From NCBI RefSeq assembly GCF_058153355.1, contig NZ_CM177019.1: a stretch of 64,000 bases of DNA; one strand, given 5' to 3'. The position numbers and the translations under genes are program-made. The notes beneath the pieces were generated by a model. The model made no database searches. It saw only the letters and a list, made by a program, of their open reading frames with translations, and was not told the origin of the DNA. Shown here one piece after another: positions 51,638 through 61,643 of the stretch; the stretch's first letter is position 1; each line of letters starts with the position of its first letter.

Positions 51638-52226
51638 GTGCGACAAGAAGTCGTCCAACATATTGTTTTGATAAATTATTTATATAAAACCAACTATTCC
51701 ATTAGTTGTAGCCTACTGAGGCAGGCAAAGCTGGTAACGGCTCTGTCTGAAGCCCTTGGGACAATGTAGCTTAGCAAATATTGCTTCAGTTAATCGTGAG
51801 AAAACCTGATCGCTACAAGCATCATGCGGCGAGAGCGCTAGGCTGGGCGGTATGGTTAACATAGTGAACTGTCGTTAAACGTCGTAACAGAGAACGAGCC
51901 AAAGATGCTGATAGGCTTGCACCAAAAGGTAAGGGGTAAGGCTATTCCTGTTCGTAGTGGGAATACATGGACAATAACTCCCCCGGCGGATAGACAGAAC
52001 CTAACCCGTTCTTTGTATGTTGGTCGGAACTTGGTAAGCCCGAATTCTCGCCCTAGTGGCAGGGGCACCGTAAGGCAAACTGATGAGAATGCGGGTAAAG
52101 GAGGATGGAAAAAGCGAAAGCCGGACTGTAATCGTGCGGATAGAGGTTCAATATTTGCCTTAACGGGAAACCGTGCTGACTTCCATCTGGTCTTTAATTG
52201 CGAAACATCTGCGAAGGTTTCTTTGG

Positions 52227-53915
52227 ATGACATGTATGAAAATTACATCTAACAATGTAACTGCGGTCATCAACGGAAAAGGTTGGCATTCCATTAACTG
52301 GAAGAAATGCCATCAACACGTTAAAACCATACAGACAAGAATCGCAAAGGCGGCATGTAACCAGCAATGGCGTACAGTCGGTAGATTGCAACGATTGCTG
52401 GTTCGCTCATTCAGCGCCAGAGCACTGGCGGTGAAACGAGTTACGGAAAATAGCGGGCGTAAAACCCCCGGAGTTGATGGTCAAATCTGGAGTACTCCAG
52501 AATCAAAATGGGAAGCGATATTCAAACTCAGGCGAAAAGGGTACAAGCCCCTACCGCTAAAAAGAGTTTTTATACCCAAATCTAATGGCAAGAAAAGACC
52601 ATTAGGAATCCCCGTCATGCTTGACAGGGCAATGCAGGCCCTGCATCTGCTGGGATTGGAGCCTGTATCGGAAACTAATGCAGATCACAACAGTTATGGT
52701 TTCAGACCAGCGCGATGTACGGCTGACGCCATTCAACAGGTATGTAATATGTATAGTTCCCGGAACGCCTCGAAATGGGTTCTGGAAGGCGATATTAAAG
52801 GATGCTTTGAACACATTAGCCACGAGTGGCTGCTTGAAAATATTCCTATGGACAAGCAAATACTCCGTAATTGGTTGAAAGCCGGGATCATCGAAAAAAG
52901 CATATTCAGCAAAACTCTCTCGGGTACACCCCAGGGAGGAATCATATCTCCAGTTCTGGCAAACATGGCCCTGGATGGACTGGAAAGACTGCTGCAAAAT
53001 CGCTTTGGTCCGAAACGCTCAAAAACATTCAGGAAACATCAGGTTCACTTCGTCCGGTATGCTGATGATTTCATCATTTCCGGAAAGTCGAAAGAACTTC
53101 TGGAGGAGAATGTTCTTCCGTTGGTGAAATCATTTCTTGCAGAAAGAGGGCTGACGTTATCCGAAGAGAAAACGGTCATCACTCACATTACTGACGGATT
53201 TGATTTCCTTGGGCAGCACGTCCGACGCTTCGGTAGAAAACTCATAATCAGACCAGCCAAGAAAAACGTTAAACAATTTCTTAGCAAGATCAGAGAGACT
53301 ATTGAAGGTAACCGAACGGTTCCTGCATGGGTGCTAATAAATCTGCTTAATCCAATCATCACCGGGTGGGCAAACTATCACCAACATGTAGCATCGGCAG
53401 AGACATTTAACTATGTCGACAACCAAATCTGGCGCAAAATCTGGCAGTGGTGCAGAAGGAGACATCCCGGCAAAGGCCGGAGATGGATCTTCCGAAAGTA
53501 CCACACGACAATAAAAATGTGTCATGGTCGATTTTATGGAGTCGATCCGGAGGGTAGGAAATATGTTCTGTCCCGGGCCAGCGACATCCATATTAATCGC
53601 TATATAAAAATAAAGGGAACGGCAAATCCATATGATCCCGAGTGGGAAACATACTTCGAAAGAAGGCTGGACTACTCATGGAAGAAATCCCAACAGGGGC
53701 AGAAAAGGATTCTCGCTATATGGAAAAGGCAAGGATCGCGCTGCCCTTTATGTGAGCAACCGATTAATCGCGATACAGGATGGAATGTTCATCATTTGCT
53801 CAAGAAATCTCTTGGCGGTAGCGATGATGTGAGCAATTTAGTCCTACTCCATCCCAACTGCCATCGACAACTACATAGTAATGACGCTGGTCTCCCACAA
53901 GGTGGAGGCTTATAA
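52227..53915 (+). CDS. group II intron-encoded protein (reverse transcriptase / maturase / HNH endonuclease)
   Basis: RT motifs including FRPARCTADA and YADDFIISG (YADD); maturase X region; C-terminal HNH (CPLCEQPI..WNVHHLLKKSLGG..HPNCHRQLH). Start uncertain: frame opens at GTG 52173, first ATG 52227, alternative 52236. Confidence 0.85.
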   Translation: MTCMKITSNNVTAVINGKGWHSINWKKCHQHVKTIQTRIAKAACNQQWRTVGRLQRLLVRSFSARALAVKRVTENSGRKTPGVDGQIWSTPESKWEAIFKLRRKGYKPLPLKRVFIPKSNGKKRPLGIPVMLDRAMQALHLLGLEPVSETNADHNSYGFRPARCTADAIQQVCNMYSSRNASKWVLEGDIKGCFEHISHEWLLENIPMDKQILRNWLKAGIIEKSIFSKTLSGTPQGGIISPVLANMALDGLERLLQNRFGPKRSKTFRKHQVHFVRYADDFIISGKSKELLEENVLPLVKSFLAERGLTLSEEKTVITHITDGFDFLGQHVRRFGRKLIIRPAKKNVKQFLSKIRETIEGNRTVPAWVLINLLNPIITGWANYHQHVASAETFNYVDNQIWRKIWQWCRRRHPGKGRRWIFRKYHTTIKMCHGRFYGVDPEGRKYVLSRASDIHINRYIKIKGTANPYDPEWETYFERRLDYSWKKSQQGQKRILAIWKRQGSRCPLCEQPINRDTGWNVHHLLKKSLGGSDDVSNLVLLHPNCHRQLHSNDAGLPQGGGL

Positions 53916-53921
53916 AGGCTT

Positions 53922-53955
53922 GAGCGGTATGCGGGGAAACTCGCACGTACCGTTC
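53922..53955 (+). ncRNA. group II intron domain V (catalytic hairpin)
   Basis: GAGCGGTATGCGGGGAAACTCGCACGTACCGTTC: 34-nt hairpin with AGC catalytic triad and conserved bulge, 7 nt after the IEP stop. Confidence 0.8.
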
Positions 53956-54209
53956 TTAGGGGGCGGCGAGACAGTAATGAATCGCTGCTACCCGACTCTG
54001 CGTACGCAATCAAAATCCCCAGCCAATACAACATTTAACACCATCATATTTTCCATCATTAGTGTGATCAGCTGGTTATTTTCTGTTGTAATAGTGTATT
54101 AATCTATTCACCGCATCAATATTAAGAATCTCTGACAGATGTAAACTTTTTCGCGCGTTATCCCTTACGCGTTCATACTTTTCAGGATGGTATTGGAAGG
54201 TTAATAAAT

Positions 54210-61399: not shown

Positions 61400-61491
61400 G
61401 CATGGAAAAGTTAGATGTGGGCATTCTCACTCCAGCCAGAGCCACCAACTCAGGCCTGGAAAGTAAAAGACCGACGTAAGTCGGTTTTTTT
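61400..61491 (+). ncRNA. agrB-like antisense sRNA with intrinsic terminator (bounds approximate)
   Basis: Unit GTTAGATGTGGGCATTCTCACTCCAGCCAGAGC at 61410-61442, then hairpin GACCGACGTAAGTCGGT plus TTTTTTT (61469-61491) on plus strand. Confidence 0.45.
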
Positions 61492-61643
61492 ACATCCGGA
61501 TTCAGACCTCCTTTCAAATGAATACCCAACTCAAAATTCACACCTATTACCTTCCTCTGCACTTACACATTCGTTAAAACATATATGTTTTTGACTTATC
61601 CGCTTCGAAGAGAGACACTACCTGCAACAATCAGGAGCGCAAT

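Follow-up and report, generated by a model that had tools for sequence, protein, structure and literature searches.

An intact group II intron of a hok/srnB plasmid lineage, very probably retrotransposed off target into a REP element of the chromosomal uspA-dtpB spacer

Two described group II introns, EcI5 of Escherichia coli and T.el4h of Thermosynechococcus elongatus, are the closest known systems to the element analyzed here, and both combine a ribozyme of the IIB1 type with a protein of the chloroplast-like-1 (CL1) type (PMC8643678). EcI5 recognizes its DNA target through the exon-binding sites EBS1, EBS2, EBS2a and EBS3, together with protein contacts (PMC8643678). The group II introns of enterobacteria have been described as short-lived and counter-selected (PMC3522654). 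We analyzed a stretch of 64,000 nucleotides (the window) from contig NZ_CM177019.1 of RefSeq assembly GCF_058153355.1, in which a group II intron of 2,359 nt, with GUGCG...AC ends, occupies positions 51638-53996 of the plus strand between uspA and dtpB. This intron is very probably an intact mobile element of IIB1/CL1 type which belongs to a plasmid lineage found in the toxin genes hok and srnB and which was retrotransposed, off target, into a chromosomal repetitive extragenic palindromic (REP) element. The class of the ribozyme and of the protein was assigned by similarity, since the nearest relatives, T.el4h and EcI5, are described as IIB1/CL1.

The borders of the insert were determined by an empty-site test: flanks of 500 bases from either side of 51638-53996 were joined and compared with complete E. 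coli genomes. The rejoined flanks were identical, at 1000 of 1000 bases, to many E. coli chromosomes, so that the borders are exact; the empty uspA-dtpB arrangement was found in 5,419 of the 5,426 complete E. coli genomes. The insert begins with GTGCGACAAG (GTGCG) at 51638 and its 3' end is ...CTACCCGAC / CTGCTACCCGAC at 53996, the last three bases being GAC; both ends are of the conserved group II type (5' GUGYG, 3' AY). Removal of the intron leaves a spacer of 104 + 213 = 317 bp, compared with 316 bp in K-12. An initial annotation of this DNA, made from the sequence alone, had placed the start of the insert at the GUGCG of 51638 and its end near 53996, leaving about 317 bp of host spacer; the intron-less genomes gave the same boundaries and the same spacer.

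Rfam models matched close to both ends of the insert: RF02012 (group-II-D1D4-7) over its full length at 51690-51837 (112.5 bits, gathering score 34) and RF00029 (domain V/VI) from end to end at 53920-53996 (65.5 bits, gathering score 40). These were the only group II intron matches in the window. The fold of domains I-III was derived from an alignment of the first ~600 nt of the window intron with eight relatives, namely six of the same family (77-98% identity), EcI5 and a common F-plasmid intron. The RNAalifold consensus of these nine introns contained 172 pairs in domains I-III. Standard pairs were found in 96.6% of the cells, compared with 34-43% when the 3' partners were slid by 1-3 columns, and compensatory changes were found at 64 pairs, compared with a mean of 21 in shuffled alignments, none of which reached 64. 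In domains V and VI, 29 pairs were recovered, 8 of them with compensatory change.

All ribozyme domains lie on the plus strand. Domain I (51644-52033, intron nt 7-396) includes the RF02012 match; domain II (52038-52096, helices 22-25) has seven pairs with compensatory change and domain III (52098-52195, helices 26-31) has nine. Domain IV is placed only as the segment that bears the open reading frame (ORF). Domain V, GAGCGGTATGCGGGGAAACTCGCACGTACCGTTC at 53922-53955, shows the AGC triad, a 2-nt bulge and a GAAA loop, is covered by RF00029 and has 14 pairs, four of them compensatory. The helix of domain VI (53959-53993) carries the branch-point A bulged at 53990, seven nt from the 3' end of the intron; in the consensus fold (alignment A2) this base is unpaired between pairs 73-100 and 72-102. 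None of the structural pairs is broken in the window copy relative to its relatives. RNAalifold also proposed a helix 1 (intron nt 2-6 with 561-565), which had zero compensatory support and is not claimed.

The ORF at 52227-53915 (plus strand, stop codon included) encodes, from the ATG at 52227, a protein of 562 amino acids with reverse transcriptase (RT), X/maturase and HNH endonuclease (En) domains. Pfam models RVT_N, RVT_1 (2e-40), GIIM (3e-23) and HNH (8e-10) matched this ORF, and the NCBIfam model TIGR04416, "group II intron RT/maturase", scored 369.5 bits, above its cut-off of 300. The 562-residue form is identical to NCBI HFG3511611.1 and its start codon is aligned with that of the Salmonella and Citrobacter relatives; a RefSeq-style start at ATG 52236 gives 559 residues. 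The closest solved structure is that of the T.el4h maturase (6ME0_C, E 1.7e-187), which aligned over residues 17-554, a span that takes in the YADD motif as well as the Cys/His endonuclease region at the C-terminus. In the closest copy on a complete plasmid (L003, pRHB33-C08_2), a C-to-T change at intron nt 2261 makes the protein five residues shorter; the C-terminus of the window protein is of full length.

The initial annotation had proposed an ORF with RT, maturase and HNH regions, a domain V just past its stop, and a domain VI with a bulged A. The protein models and the consensus fold recovered each of these, domain V starting at the seventh base after the stop codon (53913-53915). Its overall reading, a complete and potentially mobile group II intron between the uspA terminator and dtpB, is borne out by the Rfam matches, the covariation, the protein domains, the empty sites and the near-identical copies described below.

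By Megablast, the intron was absent from all 5,426 chromosomes of the complete E. coli set; two plasmids belonging to the same set carried it. In PLSDB, copies with 97-99.6% identity were located on plasmids of incompatibility group F (IncF) of E. coli and E. albertii, and IncF plasmids from Salmonella, Citrobacter and Enterobacter had relatives with 77-80% identity, inserted in hok at that same codon. A Hok-family toxin gene was interrupted in every plasmid copy whose flanks were read. Splicing in silico (↓, junction or insertion point) yielded the exact Hok, ...EVAAFMAYE↓SGK-stop, and the exact SrnB, ...VVQVTLAYE↓ARK-stop; in both hok and srnB the junction splits the codon for Glu (GA↓A) in the C-terminal AYE motif. 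Further draft genomes and metagenome contigs showed the same two homes. The intron family (L001-L008 and L027-L053 in our numbering) homes into the Glu codon of the AYE motif of Hok and SrnB, which act as toxins in plasmid addiction modules. Without splicing, the transcripts would encode toxin versions that end in ...AYECDKKSSNILF.

No match to the first 35 nt of the intron was obtained in 100,044 species-representative genomes. A protein-based genome scan gave only distant relatives, with 47-61% identity, in Acerihabitans, Enterobacter, Bartonella, Ktedonobacter and others; these were used solely for locating EBS3. In Ktedonobacter racemifer (L022:796-1040), a domain V/VI match that ends at 894 overlaps the domain I match of the next intron, which begins at 889, an arrangement suggestive of group II introns in tandem or nested. 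The metagenome scan gave five contigs, four of them with the intron in hok. In the fifth (L015:1780-2041, ERZ1035044.3506), a hok-type intron start follows ...TTGATGGCTTACGA, with fimG/fimH-like genes adjacent; the intron may have gone off target here as well, or the site may be a hok homologue that has degenerated.

The rules of targeting could be read from the covariation between the exon-binding sites, all located in domain I on the plus strand, and the intron-binding sites (IBS) of the exons. EBS1 (UCGUAG, 51952-51957, intron nt 315-320) lies in the loop of a hairpin at intron nt 304-329, which was placed by the EcI5 alignment and which is the covariation-backed helix 21. The sequence of EBS1 is UCGUAG where the 5' exon ends in CTACGA and UCGUAA in most copies with TTACGA; two Salmonella/Citrobacter copies with TTACGA retain UCGUAG, giving a G·T wobble. 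EBS2 (CAGAG, 51888-51892, intron nt 251-255) aligns with the published EBS2 of EcI5 (252-257), which falls on nt 250-255 of the window intron. It covaries with IBS2 at exon positions -13 to -9: CAGAG is found with CTCTG, CAUGA with TCATG or TTATG, and CAUAA with TTATG.

For EBS3, eight distant relatives from other phyla were added, and domain I was searched for a column that complements exon base +1. The column found contains U354 of the window intron (51991; GGCGGA-U-AGACAG), the base preceding AGRCAG, and is Watson-Crick complementary to +1 in 11 of 12 CL1-type introns, across A, C, G and T; EcI5 fits it after a shift of 1 nt. As in subgroup IIB, EBS1, EBS2 and EBS3 each covary with exon bases across copies and relatives. 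In addition, G is present at -18 in all but one of the listed site types, which hints at a protein contact resembling that of C-18 in EcI5.

In the window, the target is a REP element at 51600-51637 (plus strand), which was aligned with six other REPs from the window and with the occupied ones near rsmC and gsk that are described below. The match to the REP consensus is ...GATGCG.CG....CG.CTTATC.GGCCTAC, and the window alignment reads ...GATGCG.CG....CGCCTTATC.GGCCTAC. In the target REP a T replaces the C or A before GGCCTAC, GA follows, and the palindrome is imperfect. The tail of this REP, ATCTGGCCTACGA, equals the srnB site, CTCTGGCCTACGA, over 12 consecutive bases. The exact 12-mer TCTGGCCTACGA occurs once in the window, at the occupied site; the other REPs are 1-2 bases off, and most window REPs are without the T at -10 and without the GA at -2/-1. 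Pairing at the occupied site is 6/6 for EBS1 with IBS1 (CTACGA, 51632-51637) and 4/5 for EBS2 with IBS2 (ATCTG, 51625-51629); the first base of the 3' exon, the T at 53997 (the IBS3 position), is unpaired with the U of EBS3. These mismatches are what is expected of an off-target site and are not a feature of the intron.

Folded as single-stranded DNA, the REP gave a weak structure (-3.6 kcal/mol, z = -0.75), so that mimicry of the srnB sequence explains the insertion better than recognition of a hairpin. A weak, sub-threshold Rfam match to the REP-derived naRNA4 covers the target REP on the minus strand; other sub-threshold matches near the site (rnk leader, L20 leader, SNORD65) were regarded as noise. 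At 51636-51637 the window lineage reads CTACGA↓T and K-12 (L047) reads CTACGG↓T. With G at -1, the K-12 REP does not have a perfect IBS1; a single-nucleotide polymorphism (SNP) of the host at -1 creates it, and the site would therefore be open only in some E. coli lineages.

Near-identical copies were found at srnB and in other REPs. A copy in srnB (L027, draft genome GCA_043012465.1) had 0 differences to the window intron over the 2,333 nt compared. A copy with one difference (L016, read set SRR31800506) sits in another REP, whose empty site is found in E. coli KE55 (L018) between a tRNA-Leu cluster and rsmC, with the sequence ...GCGTCTTATCTGGCCTACGA↓AGGGC. A sister variant (L029, GCA_019492565.1), with 10 differences to the window intron and identical to the plasmid copies L003 and L028, occupies a REP between ybaL and gsk, ...ACGCCTTATCTGGCCTACGA↓ACCGA; in L030 (GCA_025482135.1) the intron in the same ybaL-gsk REP differs from L029 at two positions. 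All three occupied REPs have the 16 nt CTTATCTGGCCTACGA in common. There have been at least three independent REP insertions, all of them by the srnB-tuned variant.

The hok-tuned variant was seen only in hok, except for contig L015 and one off-target copy, L042 (ERZ27260105 k141_195958). The hok-tuned intron of L042 lies outside hok, at CATGGTTAACGA↓A, where IBS1 has a single mismatch; its neighbors are another RT gene and an IS66 element. In another draft genome (L032, GCA_042204225.1), an srnB 5' exon and a gsk-side 3' exon are joined through the intron. Either the assembly collapsed two copies of the same genome, in which donor and REP copy would then coexist, or the two introns recombined; the collapse is the simpler explanation.

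Reverse splicing, cleavage of the bottom strand by HNH and reverse transcription form the standard pathway of En-plus group II introns. At the uspA-dtpB site, the putative donor of the ribonucleoprotein would be a plasmid of the sub-lineage tuned to srnB, with EBS1 UCGUAG, EBS2 CAGAG and the target CTCTGGCCTACGA↓A. The particle of lariat and protein would reverse-splice, guided by EBS/IBS pairing, into the top strand of the REP, whose tail ATCTGGCCTACGA↓T mimics the srnB site. The HNH domain would then cut the bottom strand and the reverse transcriptase would make the DNA copy of the intron by target-primed reverse transcription. Such a pathway would account for the exact borders, for the absence of a target duplication and for the absence of flanking plasmid DNA. 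The chromosomal copy is regarded as off-target (ectopic) because the natural home of the lineage is the hok and srnB toxin genes of IncF plasmids and the target here is a REP. Judged from its sequence, with an intact ORF and unbroken helices, the window copy looks functional on paper and may still splice and move; the copies at other sites that differ from it by 0-1 nt give indirect support to this.

Several observations weigh against this reading. The intrinsic terminator of uspA (51557-51580, plus strand; a 10-bp G+C-rich stem followed by a T run) lies 57 nt upstream of the intron; no convincing promoter was found in the sequence upstream of the intron, which is directly preceded by this strong-looking terminator. 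Since the terminator precedes the intron and the promoter match is poor, intron transcription would depend on read-through from uspA. The window copy is also the only one with a mismatch at +1, every other copy with a recovered 3' exon having A at this position; the mismatch should weaken exon ligation. Upstream of -13, the REP and srnB sites have little in common beyond the G at -18. An EBS2a interaction is not well defined either: the bases 5' of EBS2 (U248; A249 or G249) pair inconsistently with -14 across sites. Finally, membership in CL1 is assigned from best matches.

Some of these observations could be explained if the intron were a dead relic, inserted once and since deprived of splicing and movement, an explanation that we consider improbable. 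Besides the position behind the uspA terminator, the lack of a clear promoter and the EBS3/IBS3 mismatch, it would agree with the reported short life and counter-selection of group II introns in enterobacteria (PMC3522654). The window intron nevertheless retains a full-length ORF, has 0 differences to the srnB copy over 2,333 nt and a single one to another REP copy, and its structural pairs are unbroken relative to those of its relatives. In known IIB introns, lariats still form despite a mismatch at +1. A somewhat better case, though still an unlikely one, can be made for the REP tail as a true second homing site, to which the lineage would have adapted and in which REPs ending in ATCTGGCCTACGA would form a deliberate chromosomal niche. 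The REP insertions, at three independent loci, involve two sub-variants of the srnB-type intron, each of them 0-2 nt away from a plasmid copy, and 16 nt of target are common to the three REPs. In every REP copy, however, EBS2 pairs at 4/5 positions, as opposed to 5/5 with srnB, which shows the tuning of the intron RNA to be to srnB rather than to the REP; moreover, REP copies are rare (0 of the 5,426 complete chromosomes) and most window REPs are without the bases at -10 and -2/-1.

The remaining explanations concern the route of arrival and the identity of the element. Arrival by recombination or plasmid integration, instead of retrotransposition, would find an example in L032, if its srnB and gsk-side exons were joined by intron-intron recombination, but that contig is explained more simply by the collapse of two copies. 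At the window locus plasmid DNA is absent on both sides of the intron and the flanks rejoin, to the base, as the ancestral spacer, which leaves this route very little room. That the element might be of a different RT kind (a retron, for instance, or a defence-associated RT, DRT) was raised by NCBIfam models of retron and DRT enzymes, which matched it weakly; these matches fell far under their cut-offs (e.g., 50.6 versus 235 bits) while TIGR04416 passed its own, and the ribozyme domains supported by Rfam and covariation, together with the GIIM maturase domain, already refute it. Off-target retrotransposition from the srnB-tuned plasmid lineage is therefore the explanation that we retain.

The insertion left the main host genes undisturbed: neither uspA and its terminator nor the 213 bp that precede dtpB are disrupted, and the coding and promoter regions of uspA and dtpB are untouched. 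The initial annotation had described the site as non-coding DNA; this holds for uspA and dtpB, whose coding sequences are intact, and not for the other strand, where two overlapping antisense genes for small proteins, yriA and yriB in the K-12 annotation, both span the point of insertion. According to that annotation and to translation, the yriB ORF (53988-54044, minus strand) now ends within the intron, with MVLNVVLAGDFDCVRRVG before its stop. It retains 16 of 17 residues, the last one alone being replaced; the empty-site allele ends in ...RRS-stop and that of K-12 in ...RRP-stop. From the ORF list and the K-12 comparison, the yriA ORF (53792-54034, minus strand) consists of its first 12 codons followed by 68 codons of antisense intron, the C-terminal half being lost. 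As the intron lies on the opposite strand, splicing is unable to restore either gene.

Expression of yriA and yriB has been described as PhoQP-dependent and induced by low Mg2+, and deletion of yriAB causes a growth defect in low Mg2+ which is complemented by YriB (PMC11429745). The insertion may thus not be neutral for the host, given the growth defect reported for the loss of yriAB. The loss of YriA itself may matter little, because its C-terminus already differs by a frameshift between K-12 and the window lineage.

A second REP-associated mobile element was observed within 1.5 kb upstream of the intron: an IS110-family element (IS621-like, "RNA-guided transposase") at 48900-50310, with its transposase ORF at 49096-50076 on the minus strand, located between pitA and uspB and with REPs on both sides. 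The only other match above an Rfam gathering threshold in the window was the small RNA AgrB at 61411-61493 (95.7 bits), an ordinary E. coli feature unrelated to the intron.

The element is of a known kind, and E. coli already has several named introns; the recurrent landing in REPs is the mildly unexpected part. In the literature searched, no report was found of a group II intron homing in hok or srnB or of an En-plus intron in E. coli REPs, curated intron databases being outside the search, so that the element may already have a database name. The home at the AYE codon of Hok/SrnB and the REP landing of an En-plus intron are new with respect to that literature and bear on the route by which retroelements pass from plasmid to chromosome. 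One intron observed at its plasmid home and at three chromosomal look-alikes provides a natural test of targeting rules, since the pairs that were kept and those that were lost can be read. For gene targeting, it offers a further EcI5-like intron with readable recognition rules. With the intron inside a toxin codon, killing mediated by hok/srnB may depend on splicing.

It is conceivable, although the odds are against it, that an En-bearing intron lineage specialized in toxin genes is now leaking into the chromosome through REPs that mimic the srnB target. This could be a first step to chromosomal proliferation as in Thermosynechococcus. If REPs with ATCTGGCCTACGA tails were efficient targets, the hundreds of REPs of E. 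coli would constitute a ready and mostly harmless landing field, in which individual sites would be opened or closed by a single host SNP, such as the -1 base that is A in the window lineage and G in K-12.

Compared with other elements that land in or near palindromic repeats, the window intron differs in mechanism. Members of the IS621/IS110 family and IS1397 likewise land in E. coli REPs, but these are DNA transposases or recombinases, whereas the intron would use RNA-DNA pairing and reverse transcription. Class C (IIC) introns resemble the window copy in that it also lies just past a terminator, in a palindromic repeat; IIC introns, however, have neither an endonuclease nor an EBS2, and the window intron has both an HNH domain and a covarying EBS2. 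IIC-type recognition of the REP hairpin was rejected, the fold being weak and the target match being accounted for by sequence.

Among introns with the same set of domains, that of L010 (pMB2855_2), present on many ST131-type F plasmids, has 60% protein identity and ~66% DNA identity over the full length; it is inserted at another site, with C at +1 and a different IBS, and is much commoner, with hundreds of records. T.el4h, also called Th.e.I3 (PDB 6ME0, 6MEC, 8FLI), is described as IIB1/CL1 and has the nearest protein of solved structure, the comparison with the window element being one of proteins; it is cyanobacterial and thermophilic and has other targets. EcI5, from pO157 of E. coli O157:H7, belongs to the same Rfam families and can be aligned in domain I helix by helix, with EBS2 and EBS1 at equivalent positions; it shares the RT/X/En protein architecture and the residence on an F-like plasmid. 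The homing site of the pO157 intron (L009:1317-3722) is …CCAAACTGGTGCTCGAAT↓CGTAT, in agreement with the C-18, C-17, A-15, A-14 and T+5 published for EcI5. That the window intron is itself EcI5 was rejected on account of this other target, of a protein identity of 53% and of a blastn alignment that covers 23% of the intron DNA at 75.7% identity. The window element shows all testable defining features of a IIB group II intron and stands as a separate member whose homing site is its own.

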